A DNA stretch of 32,000 bases from NCBI GenBank assembly GCA_021498095.1, contig JAIZWK010000001.1, positions 4,256,768 to 4,288,767 of the forward strand, given 5' to 3'. Positions 8,960-16,250 of the stretch are shown piece by piece. Numbering within the stretch: position 1 is the stretch's first letter; every line of letters starts with the position of its first letter. The notes under the pieces were generated by a model, which saw only the letters and a list, made by a program, of their open reading frames with translations, was not told the DNA's origin and ran no database searches. The DNA comes from Candidatus Harpocratesius repetitus (GTDB taxonomy: Archaea; Asgardarchaeota; Lokiarchaeia; Sigyniarchaeales; Promethearchaeaceae). A program made the position numbers and the translations under genes.

Positions 8960-9030
8960 GAACACCAACTGAGATGGTGAATGCACAAAAAGAGAAAAAA
9001 TTTTTGCTAAAAAATAATTCTTTTTCAATT

Positions 9031-9687
9031 ATGGAAAATTGGAAACGATTAGTCCCGTTTTTTTCTTCTGATACTTATGAGAGAATAGAAAAATTCTTAC
9101 AATTTGAACAAAATCAAGGAAAATCTATACTACCAACACATGATAATATATTCAATGCTTTTAATCTTACTCCTTTTGAGAAGGTTAAGGTTGTGATATT
9201 AGGTCAAGATCCTTACCCTAGTCCTCAGCATGCTCATGGATTGGCATTTTCAATTCCAAAAAGCACGCAAGATATTCCACCAACGTTAAAAAATATCTTC
9301 AAAGAATTAAAATCAGATATTGGAAATGATACACCACATGGTAATCTAGAACATTGGGCACAACAAGGAGTTTTGTTATTAAATACAGCGTTGACGGTTG
9401 AAGAAGGAAAATCGAACTCCCACCAATCAATTGGTTGGAAAATACTTACAAAAGAAGTCCTCACTTTAGTTTCTCAGAAGAAAAAACATTGTGTTTTTAT
9501 ATTATGGGGAAACAATGCACGTAAATATCGAAAAATCCTTACAAATCCTGCGCATTTAATTATCGAAAGCCCCCACCCAAGTCCACTTGCAGCATATCGT
9601 GGATTCTTTGGTTCTAAACCTTTTTCCAAAACAAATACTTACCTAAAAGAAAATGGGTTAATCCCAATCGATTGGAAAATTCTGTAA
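9031..9687 (+). CDS. ung: uracil-DNA glycosylase, family 1 (UNG)
   Basis: KVVILGQDPY, AHGLAFS, PPTLKNIFKEL, WAQQGVLLLNTALTV, FILWG, HPSPL, FFGSKPFSKTN. Start set at ATG 9031 (MENWK); track gives 8974. Confidence 0.95.
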   Translation: MENWKRLVPFFSSDTYERIEKFLQFEQNQGKSILPTHDNIFNAFNLTPFEKVKVVILGQDPYPSPQHAHGLAFSIPKSTQDIPPTLKNIFKELKSDIGNDTPHGNLEHWAQQGVLLLNTALTVEEGKSNSHQSIGWKILTKEVLTLVSQKKKHCVFILWGNNARKYRKILTNPAHLIIESPHPSPLAAYRGFFGSKPFSKTNTYLKENGLIPIDWKIL

Positions 9688-9702: not shown

Positions 9703-10119
9703 TCACTCTTCTTGCTGAATTCCATTAATGATTAATTCTTGTTCTGCTTGAAATTCATCTATTGTATTCATTACAATTTGGGTATGCATCATTGCAGGGC
9801 CCCCATCCATTACACTGGTAGTTAAACAAGCTTCCATCAATTCTTCTTGACTGGCGCCCAATTCTAATGCTTTTTTTGCATGATAAACGATACACCATTC
9901 GCAACGTTTCGCTAAAGCAACAGACATCAATATAATTTGCTTTATTTTTGCACTTAAAGCCCCATCTCGATTAGTTGCATGAACATACTTGAGAAAACCT
10001 TTCATTGCAGGTGCGTTAAATTCCCTAAATTGTTGAAACGTACGGGTAGCTTCATCATATATCTCTTTACTGGATTTCAAAAAATTCACCGTTGATATTT
10101 TCGTACTCTGAACAAACAT
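9703..10119 (-). CDS. carboxymuconolactone decarboxylase / AhpD-like protein with CxxC
   Basis: GALSAKIKQIILMSVALAKRCEWCIVYHAKKALELGASQEELMEA is the AhpD core. Confidence 0.88.
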   Translation of the reverse strand: MFVQSTKISTVNFLKSSKEIYDEATRTFQQFREFNAPAMKGFLKYVHATNRDGALSAKIKQIILMSVALAKRCEWCIVYHAKKALELGASQEELMEACLTTSVMDGGPAMMHTQIVMNTIDEFQAEQELIINGIQQEE

Positions 10120-10183
10120 AAATATAATTTAAAATTTCTGCCTAATTATTTCAAGGGTGAATACCAAAACAACAGAAATGTCT

Positions 10184-10618
10184 TTATTTAAACAATTTGA
10201 AATACTGATGATACTCTTTCAACACTTTTTCTTTTAAGTTTATTAAAATTTGATTTGCAATGTCGCGATTGAGGTTGAATTCCACTTGTTCTCCTTGATC
10301 AAAGGAGATTCCACCGAGAATTCGTGTCCCGAGTTCACATTCAAAACAGGCATTTTTAGTGAGATCAAATTTCTCTAAAAATAAAGAAAATCTATTTCCA
10401 AAAAATAATGCGTAAATTGGTTCAAACTTGTGAACCATGTATAAATATTCATGTGAAATCCCCACAAGAGAAAAAAGAATGTAGTATCGCTGATTGTGGG
10501 AAAAAATTTGCTGGATTTTATCGATTGATACTAAATTTGTAATAATTATCCCTTCCTTTGAGAACAAAATTAATTTGTTATTGATTGAAGAAAAAAGCTG
10601 AAAGATTGAATATATCAT
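10184..10618 (-). CDS. hypothetical protein with a CxxC (ACFEC), translationally coupled to the TusA-like gene
   Basis: 144-aa ORF whose ATG overlaps the TGA of the upstream gene (ATGA, 10615-10618). No family recognised. Confidence 0.6.
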   Translation of the reverse strand: MIYSIFQLFSSINNKLILFSKEGIIITNLVSIDKIQQIFSHNQRYYILFSLVGISHEYLYMVHKFEPIYALFFGNRFSLFLEKFDLTKNACFECELGTRILGGISFDQGEQVEFNLNRDIANQILINLKEKVLKEYHQYFKLFK

Positions 10619-10857
10619 TCATGTATGATCATTATGTGAAATAGATTAGAATTTATTTGGTTTGATTGAATTTTAAAACGATTTTTAGAAAAAGGTTTTT
10701 GAATATTGGCTAATTGTTCCCTGGTAGAATAGAATTCAATATAATCGCCCGATTTCAGCTTTTTTGTGAGAATTTTCAGTTTAATCATGAGATTTGTGCA
10801 GGTTAAATTGCTATAATCATCGATTTGAGTTTCAACAACCATATTTTTTTCTCCCAT
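10615..10857 (-). CDS. degenerate TusA/SirA-like sulfur carrier
   Basis: 80 aa; DDYSNLTCTNLMIKLKILTKKLKSGDYIEF follows the TusA pattern (D-x-x-G-L-x-C-P...L-x-x-G-x-x-L), but CP is CT. Confidence 0.65.
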   Translation of the reverse strand: MGEKNMVVETQIDDYSNLTCTNLMIKLKILTKKLKSGDYIEFYSTREQLANIQKPFSKNRFKIQSNQINSNLFHIMIIHE

Positions 10858-10891
10858 GTAATCAAGTATTTAGATTAATTCTTATAATTTG

Positions 10892-12157
10892 TCAGAAAAA
10901 AAAAATACGCATACCAAGATGAATTTGATTATAATTATCAGATATAGAAAAGATTTCATGCAGATTATTATCATTTAATATTTGAACACCTGGCAAACCA
11001 TCAATACAGCCAATACCTTCGATATTTTCTCTAATGTTAGATGTACTAATTAAATTAGAATTTAAATCGGCATAATATTTTAAATTCTCCATATCATAGG
11101 TCGCTTCAATAATTTCTTTAATATTAAAAACAGGTTCATGGAAATCCTTATCTGTAAGAGTACTTCCAATAAATGTAAAAAGACCTTTATCTTGAAATAG
11201 CACCTTTGTTAAAATTCCATTATTTGCACATGCAATGGCAAAAGATATACCACCAAATGCCCATTCAGAATGGTATGGAGAATTAGAAATCACAATTAAA
11301 AGGGAGTATGATCCATCGAATGTGAATGTTTTGGAGTTTGATTTCAATATTGAAAAATAAATCATTCCAGAATTAGCAGAGAAAATAGGAAAGAGATGCT
11401 TAAACCTCTCAATTATTTCATTTAAATTAATAATTTCTACAGAATCAATCACATTGATAGGTGAGTAGAATCCATCAGAATTCATCATACAATATCCTCG
11501 AGCTATTGCACACCGAGAACATCCCATAATTTTTAGAAAAATTTCATCACTATTTGAATATTTAGAGAGTTTTGTCAAAAGGTTTCCTATATTTTCAAAT
11601 TCTGAAGGATTTTGGTTGGAATGAAACATATGTAAGCCATCCAAATAAGCATATAACTCAGTATTTTTGTTCATATTAGCTGCAGCTTTTAGAAATCGAG
11701 TGCAATAGACAGATGAGCGGCTCATATATGGTCCTTCCAATTGAAAAAAACCGATGTTATGAAGAATTTTGGATAATTTGCTTGTTTCATAATTTAAAAA
11801 GGAGTAATTCTGAGAAATAAGATGATCCCAGAAATCATAAGGAGAATCCCCAATTACATCAATATTTTCAAAAAATTCATTGGACTCATTAGTATTATAT
11901 ATTTTTCTAAAATCCAATCCACGTAATTGAGATTCCCATCCATCAAGCACCCAGAATATTAAATTATTTTTGTTTTTCTGAAATTTCTTTATAATATCTA
12001 TGATTTCTGGGTTGAAAAAAGAAAAGAGTGCTTCACCTGTAATATAAAAATGCAATTCTAACTTATCTTTTAATTGATTTTCATTTGTCAAGGAAAGAAT
12101 TAATTTCATTCTAACAAGAGATATGTAATCAGAAAATAAAAAAAATAAATTCGGCAT
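10892..12157 (-). CDS. three-domain DsrH/TusB-DsrE/TusD-DsrF/TusC-like fusion sulfur-relay protein
   Basis: N: FYITGEAL...FWVLDGWESQLRGL (TusB-like). Middle: GPYMS...YAYLDGLH...NQNP...GCSRCAIARG (TusD-like, Cys retained). C: LIVISNSPYHSEWAFGGISFAIA...VLFQDKGLF (TusC-like). GGAGGA RBS at 12164-12169. Confidence 0.75.
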   Translation of the reverse strand: MPNLFFLFSDYISLVRMKLILSLTNENQLKDKLELHFYITGEALFSFFNPEIIDIIKKFQKNKNNLIFWVLDGWESQLRGLDFRKIYNTNESNEFFENIDVIGDSPYDFWDHLISQNYSFLNYETSKLSKILHNIGFFQLEGPYMSRSSVYCTRFLKAAANMNKNTELYAYLDGLHMFHSNQNPSEFENIGNLLTKLSKYSNSDEIFLKIMGCSRCAIARGYCMMNSDGFYSPINVIDSVEIINLNEIIERFKHLFPIFSANSGMIYFSILKSNSKTFTFDGSYSLLIVISNSPYHSEWAFGGISFAIACANNGILTKVLFQDKGLFTFIGSTLTDKDFHEPVFNIKEIIEATYDMENLKYYADLNSNLISTSNIRENIEGIGCIDGLPGVQILNDNNLHEIFSISDNYNQIHLGMRIFFF

Positions 12158-12204
12158 ATTTATTCCTCCAAAGAGACATTTTAATAAAAAAGAGAATAAG
12201 AATG

Positions 12205-12432
12205 TTATTTCTTTTCAATAGTTAATTCCCACAAACCAGGTTCTAACTTCTTTAATTTGACAGGATATTTCGCTTTCTTCATAGCTCGAGGAATAGTTTT
12301 AGTTGCAGCAGGCGGATGGTCACATTTCACAATGAGAAAATCACCTGCAGAAATTTCTTCTAATTTTTGCTTAACAATTAAAAGGCAAAATGGACATACT
12401 TTTCCAGTAATATCTAATTCATGATTTGTCAT
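12205..12432 (-). CDS. tusA: TusA/SirA-family sulfurtransferase
   Basis: ELDITGKVCPFCLLIVKQKLEEISAGDFLIVKCDHPPA...IP; 75 aa. Confidence 0.9.
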   Translation of the reverse strand: MTNHELDITGKVCPFCLLIVKQKLEEISAGDFLIVKCDHPPAATKTIPRAMKKAKYPVKLKKLEPGLWELTIEKK

Positions 12433-12490
12433 ATATATGCTTCAACTCCTATTGTATTTTAACACTTGTAATATAAAAAATAAAAAAAAC

Positions 12491-12997
12491 TTAAAAAAGA
12501 GAAACAACCCAACTGGCAATGAATAAATGAAACAATACTGCTCCGACCATCATGCCTAAGATGAAGAAAAGAGATTTGACATTACCTTCAAATCCCATGA
12601 CAATTTGCCTCAGAGGACATCCTCCTAACATAACACCCAATAATCCCATTCCAAAACCACCAATAATTGCTAAAATTATATACGCCCAGTTTTCTAATCC
12701 TCCAGGTGCTCCTGGAATTGGAGTAAAAAAACCTTTTTCAGCAGCCCAATAGAAATTAGGAAATGCAGTTCCAATAATCAGCGAAAAGATGAAATAACTT
12801 ACGAAAGCAGAAGCAATTAATGCTAAATAACCAAAAAATAGTCTGGTCTGCTTAAACAAAAATAAATCCCTCATTCCACCAATGGAGCAGAAGCCAGATT
12901 GCTGTGCAAAATAACCAATGATAACACCTAATATAAGAGTCAAGATTGGAACTAAAATCAATACTGCAGTCCCTGTGAAAACACTTTGTAACATCAT
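12491..12997 (-). CDS. YeeE/YedE thiosulfate/selenium transporter family, C-terminal-half protein
   Basis: GVIIGYFAQQSGFCSIGGMRDLFLF and GGCPLRQIVMGFEGN; hydrophobic. ATG overlaps the upstream TAA by 1 nt (TAATG); GAGGAGG RBS. Confidence 0.88.
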   Translation of the reverse strand: MMLQSVFTGTAVLILVPILTLILGVIIGYFAQQSGFCSIGGMRDLFLFKQTRLFFGYLALIASAFVSYFIFSLIIGTAFPNFYWAAEKGFFTPIPGAPGGLENWAYIILAIIGGFGMGLLGVMLGGCPLRQIVMGFEGNVKSLFFILGMMVGAVLFHLFIASWVVSLF

Positions 12998-13530
12998 TAT
13001 TTTGCTTCCTCCTCAATTTGTTTTTTCATTTGAAACAAGACAATTCGGGTTCCTACAAAAACACCCAAAGCTATCGCTAAAATACCTATAAATGCAAGCA
13101 TATCTCCATATGCAAATCTTAAAGCGGCTCGGTAGGGACATCCTCCAAGAAGAAGAGCAAATATCAAAACAAAGATTCCACCAAGGAAATATAATAATGC
13201 CCCTTTAAAGTTTGCCTTTTTTATACGGAATTCTTTATTATTTTTAGCAGCTATAAGTGCTCCGATCATCACACCGATAATACTTAAAGCCGGTGCAAAT
13301 GCAGCTGCAGAAAAAGGTGCAACAACCAATGATGTTCCAAAGATTGAATTGATTAAATCATCCACCATATCTCGAGTGTGACATGCAACGCAAAAACCGT
13401 ATGCTTCAGGACCTCCAGCTGAATATAGAAGAGATTGTAACAATGCAGCTAAAAAACCAATAATCACCCCTAAAAATATCGGCGAGCGAACCATTTTAAT
13501 TAAATTTTTAGACTTGGATTCATCTTCCAT
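12997..13530 (-). CDS. YeeE/YedE thiosulfate/selenium transporter family, N-terminal-half protein
   Basis: GVIIGFLAALL, YGFCVACHTRD, IIGVMIGALIAA...KEFR, GGCPYRAALRFAYGD. Start moved to ATG 13530 behind GAGGA; track gives TTG 13542. Confidence 0.88.
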   Translation of the reverse strand: MEDESKSKNLIKMVRSPIFLGVIIGFLAALLQSLLYSAGGPEAYGFCVACHTRDMVDDLINSIFGTSLVVAPFSAAAFAPALSIIGVMIGALIAAKNNKEFRIKKANFKGALLYFLGGIFVLIFALLLGGCPYRAALRFAYGDMLAFIGILAIALGVFVGTRIVLFQMKKQIEEEAK

Positions 13531-13622
13531 ATCATTCCTCAATATTTTATCCTATAAAAAATTAGATATCAAACGAAATGAACCTATAGAATGTTTTAAT
13601 AGATAGAAAAAAAACAACGTAC

Positions 13623-13660
13623 TATGAAAAAAATTAATAAATATATGAAAAATTTTTATA
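13623..13660. promoter_or_regulatory. tandem candidate LysR operator boxes (T-N11-A)
   Basis: TATGAAAAAAATTAATA (13623-13639) and TATGAAAAATTTTTATA (13644-13660): both quasi-palindromic with T-N11-A, 21 bp apart, in the divergent yedE/lysR gap. Confidence 0.5.
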
Positions 13661-13682
13661 GTAATTGTAAACACTAAAAATT

Positions 13683-14636
13683 ATGAGTTCTTCACCTTCC
13701 TTATTAAATTCAATTCGATCTCTTCGAATTGAACACTTTTTAACACTAAATGAACTCATCAAAACGAGATCTTTTTCCCAAACTGCAAGAAATTTAGGTA
13801 TCACACAAGGTGCAATTTCCCATAGATTGAAAGATTTAGAGCATGCACTTGGAAATTTAGAATTATTAACCCGTACTTCCAGATATCTTAGCATTAATCC
13901 TGAGGGATTAATAGTGAAAAAATTTTCAGAAAAACTTGAAGAACAACTTTTAGAATTGCAGTTAAAAATTCAAGAAGCAAATAAAACACCCCAAATTAAT
14001 ATTACAATCGCCTCTTCTTCCATTCCTGGAGAATATCTTCTTCCTAAATTATTTATGCATTTTCAGAATAAATATCCAAATCTGATTTTTCAAATTCATA
14101 TTTCTAATACAAAATGTTCTATTAGCGAGCTTTTGAATGGCAAAACAAATTTTTGTGCAGTAGGAAATTTGGATCATGTTAATCTTTCAGAAATAGATTA
14201 TAAAGAAATCGGACAAGATAAAATTCTAATTATTGCTAAAAAAAATCATCCTATTTTCAGTTCATTACAAAAAATAAAAAATAAAATCGATTATCCTCAA
14301 GTTTTTTCTCATTTGCTGAAGTATCCGTGGGTACTCCGAGAATTGGGCTCTGCCACTCGTGAAATCTTTTTTCGAGAATTCAAGTATAGTTCTAAAATTC
14401 AGGTAGGATTGGAACTTCACAATAATACAGCCATCATTCATGCAGTGGAAAATAGTAATGCATTATCTGCTATAAGCAGCTTTGCACTTGAATCGTTAGG
14501 TAGAGAAGCAAATGTTCAACCAGTTAGACATATAGCACTAAAGAAAATTCAAAGGAATCTATATATTGTAAAAAAGAAGGAAAAAAGATTGAATCCACAT
14601 GAAAAAGATTTTTGGAATTTCACCAGTACCTTTTAA
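13683..14636 (+). CDS. LysR-family transcriptional regulator, CysL / selenium-associated type
   Basis: HTH: SFSQTARNLGITQGAISHRLKDLE...LLTRTSR. Effector domain: IASSSIPGEYLLP, LRELGSATR, ELHNNTAIIHAVE. Confidence 0.9.
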   Translation: MSSSPSLLNSIRSLRIEHFLTLNELIKTRSFSQTARNLGITQGAISHRLKDLEHALGNLELLTRTSRYLSINPEGLIVKKFSEKLEEQLLELQLKIQEANKTPQINITIASSSIPGEYLLPKLFMHFQNKYPNLIFQIHISNTKCSISELLNGKTNFCAVGNLDHVNLSEIDYKEIGQDKILIIAKKNHPIFSSLQKIKNKIDYPQVFSHLLKYPWVLRELGSATREIFFREFKYSSKIQVGLELHNNTAIIHAVENSNALSAISSFALESLGREANVQPVRHIALKKIQRNLYIVKKKEKRLNPHEKDFWNFTSTF

Positions 14637-16185
14637 TTACAGTATCTTTAATAATTGATGCTTTATTTGGGTAATCTAACGTATAATGCGCCCCCCGACT
14701 TTCTTTTCTGGCTAAAGCGCTTTCAACAATCAACCTTGCAACTGTTAATAAATTTCGCAGCTCAATTAAGTCGCTTGTTATTTTAAAATTCCAATAATAA
14801 TTATCTACTTCTTCATGAATCAAAGAAATCCTATGACGGGCTCTCAATAAATAACTAGTAGAACGAATAATAGAAGCATAATTCTGCATAATGTGTCGGA
14901 TTTCATTCCAATTAAAAGTAATTACAAAAGCTTCTTTAGAATCTGTTATTCCTTCTTCTGACCACTCTTGAATCTGATAAGGAGGAAAATTTCTTTTAGA
15001 ATATTTTTCACCAACATATTTTCCACATTCATAACCACATACCAAACCCTCTAAAAGAGAATTGCTAGCTAACCTATTTGCCCCATGAAATCCTGTACAT
15101 GCACACTCCCCAACTGCAAAAAGATCGGGAACATTAGTTTTCCCAAAAATGGTAGCTTTAATACCTCCACAAATATAGTGAGCAGCTGGAACTACAGGTA
15201 TGGGTTCTTTGGTAATATCAATATTAAACTTTAAACATGTTTCATATACTCCGGGAAATCGGCTTTTTAAAAATTCAGGATCTTTAAATGATATATCAAG
15301 CAAAACATAATCATCACCAGTTTCTTTTAGGACGGTATCAATTGCTCGTGCAACAATATCCCGAGGTGCCAATTCTTTTAAAGGATGAATTTTCTCCATA
15401 AAGCGATTTCCTTTCAAATCTGTTAAAATTGCACCTTCTCCTCTTATTGCTTCAGTGATGAGAGCATTCTTTGCCAAAGGATGATATAAACATGTAGGAT
15501 GGAATTGAACCATTTCCATATTTACGATTTCTGCTCCAATTCTGGAAGCCATGGCAATTCCATCTCCTGAAGCCACATCTGGATTACTCGTATAAAGGTA
15601 TACTTTTCCGATACCCCCTGTTGCTAAAATAGTGGCTTTTGCTTGAATTGCGTATATTTTATTTGTTTCATTATTAAGGACATAGACACCAGCACATTTT
15701 CCATTAATTTCAATTAGATTTATTGCCACTTGATTTTCTCGGAGTTCTACGTTTGGATATTTCTTAATTTGATTTACTAAAGTAAGGAGAACTTCACGCC
15801 CAGTTAAATCTTCATAGTGCAAAATTCTACGTGAATGATGCCCACCTTCTCGACCAAGATCTAAAATGCCTCCCTCTTTTTTATCAAATTTCATACCCCA
15901 ATTGATTAAATCCTTTACCCTTTCTGTTCCTTTTTGAATAATTTTACGAACAACTTCTCTATTACATAATCCATCTCCCGCTATCAAAGTATCTTTAACG
16001 TGACCCTCAAAATCATCACTCCAAGGCCCGGATGCAGCAATTCCCCCAGCGGCATAATATGTATTGGAATCAATTTGCTTTTTTTTGGTTAAAATTAAAA
16101 CTTGTCCAAAATGTTGTAGTTCAAGTGCAGTTGAAAGACCAGCAATTCCCCCACCAATAATCAGAAAGTCAATTTTTTCAACCAT
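14620..16185 (-). CDS. nadB: L-aspartate oxidase
   Basis: IIGGGIAG, SNTYYAAGGIAA, REGGHHSRRILH, QFHPT, LITEAIRGEG, ELAPRDIVARAI, PAAHYICGG, TGFHGANRLASNSLLEGLV, ESRGAHY. Start set at ATG 16185 (MVEK); track gives 16227. The 3' end overlaps the lysR 3' end by 17 bp. Confidence 0.93.
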   Translation of the reverse strand: MVEKIDFLIIGGGIAGLSTALELQHFGQVLILTKKKQIDSNTYYAAGGIAASGPWSDDFEGHVKDTLIAGDGLCNREVVRKIIQKGTERVKDLINWGMKFDKKEGGILDLGREGGHHSRRILHYEDLTGREVLLTLVNQIKKYPNVELRENQVAINLIEINGKCAGVYVLNNETNKIYAIQAKATILATGGIGKVYLYTSNPDVASGDGIAMASRIGAEIVNMEMVQFHPTCLYHPLAKNALITEAIRGEGAILTDLKGNRFMEKIHPLKELAPRDIVARAIDTVLKETGDDYVLLDISFKDPEFLKSRFPGVYETCLKFNIDITKEPIPVVPAAHYICGGIKATIFGKTNVPDLFAVGECACTGFHGANRLASNSLLEGLVCGYECGKYVGEKYSKRNFPPYQIQEWSEEGITDSKEAFVITFNWNEIRHIMQNYASIIRSTSYLLRARHRISLIHEEVDNYYWNFKITSDLIELRNLLTVARLIVESALARKESRGAHYTLDYPNKASIIKDTVIKRYW

Positions 16186-16250
16186 TATCCAATGTAATTT
16201 GGGAAGGATAAAAAAGCCTCTCTTCATTTTCTTTAGGTGATCTTAATATC

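Follow-up and report, generated by a model that had tools for sequence, protein, structure and literature searches.

A YedE-type channel and cysteine-carrier cassette of Lokiarchaeia as a candidate route of selenium supply

We analyzed a 32,000-nucleotide stretch of DNA (the window; G000:C1:4256768-4288767) from the closed 4.36-Mb genome of Candidatus Harpocratesius repetitus (~30% GC), in which a conserved six-gene cassette encodes, in this order, the two halves of a YedE-type membrane protein (YedE-N and YedE-C), a TusA carrier, a DsrE-family fusion protein, a TusA-like protein, and a small CxxC protein. At the level of kind, the cassette was securely recognized as a channel of YedE type from which a series of cysteine carriers is supplied, but its cargo is not secure. 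We favor, with a probability of roughly 0.55, a cysteine-based chalcogen import-and-relay system that supplies selenium in this Lokiarchaeial lineage. This reading is based on three separate genomic links (cassette with selD, LysR with selD, and LysR with cassette), together with the best affinities in hidden Markov model (HMM) comparisons and the lack of sulfur acceptors in the genome. Described below are the genes and their conservation, the families and folds assigned to the products, the invariant Cys residues, and the genomic links to selD and LysR. Because the set ends in SelD in sister lineages, the cassette is a good but unproven candidate for selenium acquisition by these archaea.

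Genomic links of the cassette to selenium

Selenocysteine (Sec) is decoded in this genome: tRNA-Sec is present, and its selD contains an in-frame TGA. This agrees with the selenoproteins that an earlier note on this DNA had given as established for Lokiarchaeia. Using a strong YedE-C orthologue as the marker, we found the cassette in 21/154 genomes of the order, distributed over the family of the window (f1; 8/14, this genome included) and the families f3 (11/135) and f4 (2/4), and in none of the 246 other Asgard genomes sampled. The gene order was seen in ~20 Lokiarchaeial genomes and in ~20 loci of Methanoregulaceae, which is far beyond chance. A scan of one genome per species restricted the fusion protein to two lineages, Promethearchaeota and Methanoregulaceae. 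Lokiarchaeum ossiferum, which is in culture, carries the cassette together with LysR. In another genome of the same family, the YedE-C orthologue (G006:C219:943-1429) was broken by several stop codons and is probably a decaying cassette copy.

The earlier note had proposed co-occurrence with selenium genes as a check. This comparison was uninformative because selD is near-universal in the order (138/154 genomes, against 21/154 for the cassette); physical linkage to selD, unlike presence or absence, is informative. The selD gene lies directly downstream of the cassette and is co-directional with it in seven f3 genomes (G030, G038, G054, G119, G124, G149, and G151), at a distance of ~100 bp or less where measured and of 23 bp in G124. 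In G020 (f4), selD is divergent and stands beside YedE-N, and in G019 a cassette remnant consisting of a fusion fragment and the TusA-like gene precedes selD. The linked selD is the sole selD in each of these genomes. The f3 cassettes have no adjacent LysR gene and end with selD. Convergent with the cassette-linked selD of G124, we observed an open reading frame (ORF) for a molybdopterin-binding MoCF_biosynth protein with one in-frame TGA (L027:10435-11331, minus strand), which may encode a selenoprotein or else be disrupted.

The LysR-type regulator encoded beside the cassette matched NF040786 (LysR_Sec_metab) best among NCBIfam models, with 162.4 bits against a cut-off of 250, and the next of 53 LysR models reached 107.9 bits. 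The label "CysL-type" given to it in the earlier note was absent among the top model matches and was not borne out. It is the only LysR-family gene in the genome. LysR adjoins the cassette in four f1 genomes, being divergent here and in the same-genus genome G002, and upstream and co-directional in G007 and G010. Within f1, LysR was found in exactly the eight cassette-bearing genomes and was absent from the six without the cassette; because these genomes are related, this co-inheritance is not an independent statistic. Across the order, LysR tracks selD (132/154 genomes). In genus g13, the first gene of a predicted LysR-DsrE(CGVCC)-TusA-selD operon is an orthologous LysR that scores 222 bits against NF040786. 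The location next to selenium-utilisation genes that is characteristic of NF040786 was seen for orthologues in four g13 genomes, where they adjoin DsrE-TusA-selD; here the gene adjoins the YedE cassette. A distant homologue of the CxxC protein is also grouped with DsrE, TusA, and a LysR of 265 bits, above the NF040786 cut-off, in a genome with a Sec-containing SelD.

Two compact arrangements of related genes were observed separately. The g13 locus L113:3687-6416 (G043:C1) comprises LysR, DsrE(CGVCC), TusA(CPMP), and selD(Sec), a minimal carrier set joined to selD. At L118:3337-6044 (G405, SelD-bearing), a LysR above the NF040786 cut-off is divergent from genes for a 167-aa fragment of a double-cubane reductase, a CxxC-family protein, DsrE, and TusA.

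The HMM comparison suggested in the earlier note pointed to selenium-associated families for the channel as well, all scores being below the curated cut-offs. YedE-N and YedE-C scored 72.9 bits (model positions 5-133) and 75 bits (model positions 186-308) against TIGR04112 (seleno_YedE), summing to ~148 bits for a cut-off of 200, and only 32.4 and 22.2 bits against the TsuA/YeeE model NF041049, the cut-off of which is 645. All seven detectable full-length relatives of YedE-C were true TIGR04112 members (378-472 bits). In a small tree with few outgroups and long branches, the split YedE clade was sister to TIGR04112 and apart from E. coli YedE and TsuA (support 100/98). Profile scores, relatives, and tree thus placed the two halves nearer to TIGR04112 than to TsuA or other YeeE clades. 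The pair in the window is the only one in the genome.

Searches of the closed genome returned no match to DsrC/TusE (TIGR03342) and none to DsrA or another siroheme-reductase-like protein; DsrC/TusE and DsrA are the acceptors known for sulfur relays of DsrEFH type. In M. maripaludis under selenium starvation, a split yedE pair was up 5.3 and tusAD ~4.5 log2-fold (PMC11097638).

Architecture of the channel and its carriers

All eight ORFs described in the earlier note, namely seven co-oriented minus-strand genes and one divergent LysR gene, were verified in the window, and their products were assigned to families by Pfam and NCBIfam profile scans (Table 1). A Cys motif is present in all seven minus-strand products; the earlier note had described reactive Cys motifs in nearly every product. 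These motifs are invariant across orthologues of the YedE halves, TusA, the fusion, the TusA-like protein, and the CxxC protein, and that of the AhpD-like protein was read in the window only. The YedE orthologues have five invariant Cys residues, C47-x-x-C50 and C131 in YedE-N (motifs GFCVAC and GGCP) and C37 and C127 in YedE-C (motifs GFCS and GGCP). The first TusA has CP[FY]C (CPFC in the window) in place of the usual CPxP. The TusA-like protein, which is kept in all complete cassettes, has a single invariant Cys (TCT in LTCTN) that aligned on the active-site Cys of TusA.

The AlphaFold model of the fusion (pLDDT 82, pTM 0.87) showed three alpha/beta domains. The middle domain (D2) superposed on YchN, DsrE, and TusD at Z 15.5-16 (1jx7, 2hy5_A, and 2d1p_A); its profile matched DsrE (2hy5_A), and C213 aligned on the persulfide-carrying Cys78. 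The C213-S-R-C216 motif is invariant even in the distant copies of Methanoregulaceae. The profile of the C-terminal domain (D3) matched DsrF (2hy5_B) with an E-value of 1.7e-6. Of the subunit types that define DsrEFH/TusBCD, D2 thus corresponds to the DsrE/TusD type with Cys78 and D3 to the DsrF/TusC type. The N-terminal domain (D1) gave no match in profile searches against the PDB or in hhalign comparisons with D2, D3, E. coli TusB/C/D, and an unfused paralogue. Identification of D1 as DsrH is unproven, as no sequence or profile match linked it to DsrH, TusB, D2, or D3, and a Foldseek match of the fusion to 2hy5_C was not attributable to one domain. The designation "dsrH-E-F fusion" in the earlier note therefore held for the E and F domains and is unproven for the first; it is supported for two-thirds of the chain because residues 1-128 match nothing.

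The unfused paralogue is a set of three genes elsewhere in the genome (L036:3311-4587; G000:C1:2393310-2394586) encoding proteins of 124 aa (no match, as for D1), 141 aa (DsrE-like, CSRC), and 121 aa (D3-like). These genes adjoin those for deoxyhypusine synthase and agmatinase, and weak matches suggested that the trio is perhaps present in G001, G002, and G008 too.

The CxxC protein has an invariant C-x-E-C motif (CFEC in the window), and its orthologues are ~115-125 aa long compared with the 144-aa ORF. Residues 30-144 were modeled with pLDDT of ~95. Foldseek found no PDB match for this fold, and the best structural Z was 5.6; in the AlphaFold DB, only two uncharacterised small proteins matched. 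The family comprised 64 representatives among 1.84 billion proteins. Complex prediction for the TusA-like and CxxC proteins gave a score of 0.01.

The AhpD-like protein has the motif CEWC within CEWCIVYH and belongs to PF02627 by both its CxxC-x3-H motif and its score; against TIGR04169, it reached 54.6 bits, below the cut-off. Its gene is found beside the cassette only in this genome and in G002, where it is the last gene at the position held by selD in f3. AhpD is accordingly a genus-specific add-on and not a conserved member, perhaps one that provides reductant for the carriers.

Two gene junctions overlap, at TAATG (12997; YedE-N stop and YedE-C start, 1 nt) and at ATGA (10615-10618; TusA-like stop and CxxC protein start, 4 nt), and four genes are preceded by the Shine-Dalgarno motifs GAGGA, GAGGAGG, AGGAG, and GGAGGA, both features agreeing with the earlier description. 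Intergenic gaps measure 34-64 bp. The start of YedE-N is more likely ATG 13530 than TTG 13542, because GAGGA ends 5 nt before it and orthologues start there, and that of the TusA-like gene is probably ATG 10842 according to orthologue alignments.

Table 1. Features of the YedE cassette and adjacent regulator in the window
Feature	Position	Strand	Assignment
LysR-type regulator, 317 aa	13683-14636	+	Pfam HTH_1 and LysR_substrate
Divergent control region (putative)	13531-13682		TATA-like TTTTTATAG and two TTTTTCAT boxes
YedE-N membrane protein	12997-13530 (ORF from 13542)	-	Sulf_transp PF04143, 44 bits
YedE-C	12491-12997	-	Sulf_transp PF04143, 27.5 bits
TusA carrier 1, 75 aa	12205-12432	-	PF01206, 57.8 bits
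DsrE-family three-domain fusion, 421 aa	10892-12157	-	PF02635, 41 bits
Fusion D1, residues 1-128	11774-12157		alpha/beta domain without recognised relative
Fusion D2, residues 131-261	11372-11767		DsrE-like, invariant C213-S-R-C216
Fusion D3, residues 283-421	10895-11311		DsrF-like
TusA-like carrier 2, 80 aa	10615-10857	-	PF01206, 17.6 bits (below cut-off of 28.6)
CxxC protein, 144-aa ORF	10184-10618	-	no Pfam or NCBIfam match
AhpD/CMD CxxC protein, 138 aa	9703-10119	-	PF02627, 60.4 bits (cut-off 23)

The putative control region contains the TATA-like TTTTTATAG on the minus strand (13552-13560). It also has a pair of TTTTTCAT boxes at 13645-13652 and 13624-13631, with a distance of 21 bp between them, and the tandem boxes are retained in the orthologous region of a same-genus relative. 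The boxes may be bound by LysR; this assignment is hypothetical because the loose tandem pattern recurs ~25 times in this AT-rich genome. None of these matches is near selD, and the pattern was rejected as a diagnostic marker of a LysR regulon. An Rfam scan of the window gave no match. In a scan with bacterial promoter and terminator models, which are not applicable to archaea, the counts equaled chance.

On one side, the cassette and LysR are flanked by an L-aspartate-oxidase-like gene (14620-16227, minus strand), the 3' end of which overlaps that of LysR by 17 bp. On the other side, a uracil-DNA-glycosylase-like gene (8974-9687, plus strand) is convergent with AhpD; both labels were read from the sequence. 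The same two genes also bracket the cassette and LysR in G002.

Selenium or sulfur as the cargo

We infer the cargo, transfer order, acceptor, and regulation of the Lokiarchaeial system as follows. The YedE halves would form one channel with the five invariant Cys residues at its core, through which a selenium species would pass to the CPxC cysteines of the first TusA. From there, it would be handed to C213-x-x-C216 in the DsrE-like middle domain of the single-chain DsrEFH-like fusion, and then onward through TusA-like carrier 2 and the small CxxC protein. The relay would end at SelD, which is itself a selenoprotein and is encoded by the next gene in f3. The paired cysteines would be suited to carrying selenium as a selenotrisulfide or perselenide, the AhpD-like CxxC protein may re-reduce the carriers, and the sole LysR, which is related to the LysR_Se/HrsM group, would adjust expression to the selenium status.

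Several observations weigh against this proposal. All scores of the YedE halves and LysR against selenium models fall under the curated cut-offs. In approximately 20 loci of Methanoregulaceae, all six cassette genes are present; their products share the invariant residues, and the YedE halves are 50-56% identical to those described here. Five cassette-bearing genomes of this family, including two complete chromosomes, had no SelD above the cut-off and no LysR; three of them have the full six-gene cassette and two have variant or partial forms. The context expected for TIGR04112, that is, SelD-bearing hosts and selenium neighbors, was seen in Lokiarchaeia, with selD adjacent in eight genomes, and SelD was found in 0/5 of these Methanoregulaceae genomes. 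The neighbors of the Methanoregulaceae loci are a small sulfite-reductase-like gene (24/41 loci), rubredoxin, and cysteine desulfurase. Because the cassette is present in Methanoregulaceae without SelD and LysR, it is not in itself selenium-specific. Within the order, the cassette was missing from at least 118 of the 138 genomes with selD, among them a closed genome of the same family, and is therefore dispensable for selenocysteine use. Moreover, selD is never adjacent to the cassette within f1 and lies elsewhere in this genome. For proteins of the TusA and DsrE families, sulfur carriage is established. The nearest described cluster, the YTD or DsrEFH type II cluster, transfers sulfur in vitro (PMC13293266), and deletion of yedE in M. 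maripaludis had no clear selenium phenotype (PMC11097638).

Other features of the Methanoregulaceae were recorded alongside. The 91-bit SelD-like proteins of two genomes scored equally as HypE/ThiL and were rejected both as SelD and as NF038049. Further neighbors of the cassette are OsmC-like and C_GCAxxG_C_C genes (L050/L052), and the cysteine desulfurase gene bears an SclA-like label. Some loci have genes for an acyl-CoA dehydratase activase and HGD-D near the cassette, and in some genomes the fusion occurs in additional copies, either by itself or together with TusA.

On these grounds, a tentative alternative is that the cassette handles sulfur rather than selenium. It would then be an archaeal, fused relative of YTD that brings in thiosulfate or sulfane sulfur and passes persulfide on to sulfur assimilation or to cofactor or tRNA thiolation, with the vicinity of selD being secondary or reflecting occasional co-use. 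The Methanoregulaceae genomes without SelD and LysR, the neighbors of their loci, the gene order shared with YTD and its sulfur transfer in vitro (PMC13293266, PMC8780430), and the scarcity of the cassette among selD-bearing relatives all favor this explanation, as do the alignment of C213 with a persulfide-carrying Cys and the sub-threshold scores against the selenium models. Several observations on the Lokiarchaeial side speak against it: the TsuA models score far below seleno_YedE and the nearest full-length relatives all belong to TIGR04112; the genome has neither DsrC/TusE nor DsrA or another siroheme-reductase-like match; in eight genomes, the cassette is linked to the sole selD, in two different arrangements; and the only LysR belongs to the selenium-associated type, with an orthologue heading the g13 selD operon.

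A role in sulfur import and relay is probable for the cassette in Methanoregulaceae. A more specific proposal, which we regard as doubtful, combines the two cargoes: the cassette would be a dedicated selenium line to the selenoprotein SelD in Asgards, made up of the split YedE channel, two TusA-like carriers, the single-chain CxxC DsrEFH-like protein as a hub, and the CxxC protein, and its near-identical counterpart would carry sulfur in SelD-less Methanoregulaceae. The acceptor would thus decide which chalcogen one and the same machine carries.

We also considered an improbable third explanation, in which the channel and carriers report external selenium or sulfur to LysR, or export or sequester excess reactive selenium. 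The strict co-inheritance of LysR and the cassette in f1, the status of LysR as the only regulator of its family, and the AhpD-like reductase gene at the end of the predicted operon here would fit this explanation, and there are precedents in a YeeE-like protein, SoxT1B, with a purely signaling role toward SoxR (PMC11582611) and in an exporter role suggested for YedE (PMC5322559). Nevertheless, five soluble carriers exceed what a sensor would need, the f3 cassettes have selD as their last gene and no adjacent LysR, and the Methanoregulaceae genomes with the cassette have no LysR at all.

Selenium supply in the Lokiarchaeial lineage remained our preferred reading. The earlier note had viewed the locus as a self-contained system of chalcogen uptake, carriage, and reduction and as a possible selenium supply line or sensor. 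Of the first view, the self-contained import and carrier system with its divergent LysR was retained, and AhpD was not kept as a conserved member; the second view gained from the joining of selD to the cassette in sister lineages and lost from the same cassette in SelD-less Methanoregulaceae.

Relation to known systems and biological meaning

Among the closest known systems are the YedE/YedF/LysR_Se predictions (Lin et al., 2015, PMC5322559; TIGR04112, TIGR03527, and NF040786) and C. jejuni FdhT/FdhU. The former resemble the present system in having a YedE-type membrane protein beside TusA/SirA-like and DsrE-like CxxC domains, an archaeal YedE split into two genes, a selenium-group LysR, and linkage to selD. 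The differences are the scores under the equivalog cut-offs, the separate clade of the split YedE, the presence of the cassette in SelD-less Methanoregulaceae, and the carriers themselves: where the predicted systems have YedF with its two domains, the present one has five individual soluble proteins (a pair of TusA-like proteins, the 421-aa triple DsrE-type fusion, the new CxxC protein, and AhpD).

YTD, which we compared by its published description, is now read as a yeeE-tusA-dsrEFH type II cluster with in vitro sulfur transfer from TusA to DsrE to DsrC, and the papers describing it do not mention Asgard archaea or methanogens (PMC13293266, PMC8780430). Its gene order of YedE-like, TusA, DsrE-like, and two small conserved proteins recurs in the window and ~40 other loci, and the active-site Cys of DsrE is kept. 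Here, however, a single chain with a CxxC active site unites the domains of DsrE/F type with a third, unassigned alpha/beta domain, the last two genes encode not DsrF and DsrH but a TusA-like protein and a CxxC protein whose fold was not recognised, and the genome has no DsrC, DsrAB, or other DSR gene.

The DsrEFH/TusBCD heterohexamers (2hy5, 2d1p) are likewise related through D2, which superposes on DsrE/TusD at Z 15.5-15.6 with its Cys on Cys78, and through the DsrF-like profile of D3. In contrast, the fusion is a single polypeptide of order X-E-F with a second Cys (CSRC), and the acceptors DsrC/TusE are missing from the genome. TsuA/TsuB (YeeE/YeeD) of E. coli and Spirochaeta thermophila shares the channel superfamily, the conserved Cys, and an adjacent TusA-like cytoplasmic partner, which is obligatory in that system; in the present case, the channel is split, has an extra CxxC in its N-terminal half, and is followed by a long relay. 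Finally, the LysR regulator is comparable with HrsM of Methanococcus, which is selenium-responsive: both are LysR-family proteins of archaea that use selenocysteine, and the best model match of the present one is to the selenium-associated LysR family. Its target would be an operon for uptake and relay, whereas HrsM acts on operons for the Cys isoforms of hydrogenases.

Split archaeal YedE, LysR_Se, and TusA together with a DsrE-like YedF were already predicted in print (PMC5322559), and YedE, TusA, and DsrE go unmentioned in the Asgard selenoproteome paper. What is new is the single-chain, CxxC-site DsrE-type fusion, accompanied by another TusA-like carrier and by a CxxC protein whose fold was not recognised; the confinement of the cassette to one Asgard order and Methanoregulaceae; and its direct joining to the sole selD in several Lokiarchaeia, in contrast to the SelD-less methanogens.

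How selenium is specifically taken up and safely delivered to selenophosphate synthetase is an open question, and the cassette supplies named, small, Cys-bearing candidates for each step. The cassettes of SelD-less methanogens offer a natural comparison of sulfur and selenium relays. The selenocysteine machinery of Asgards is the nearest prokaryotic model of the eukaryotic one; if the cassette is a dedicated selenium line to SelD, which we regard as doubtful, it would constitute the long-sought physiological route by which selenium reaches selenophosphate synthetase from the membrane, in the prokaryotes most closely related to eukaryotes.

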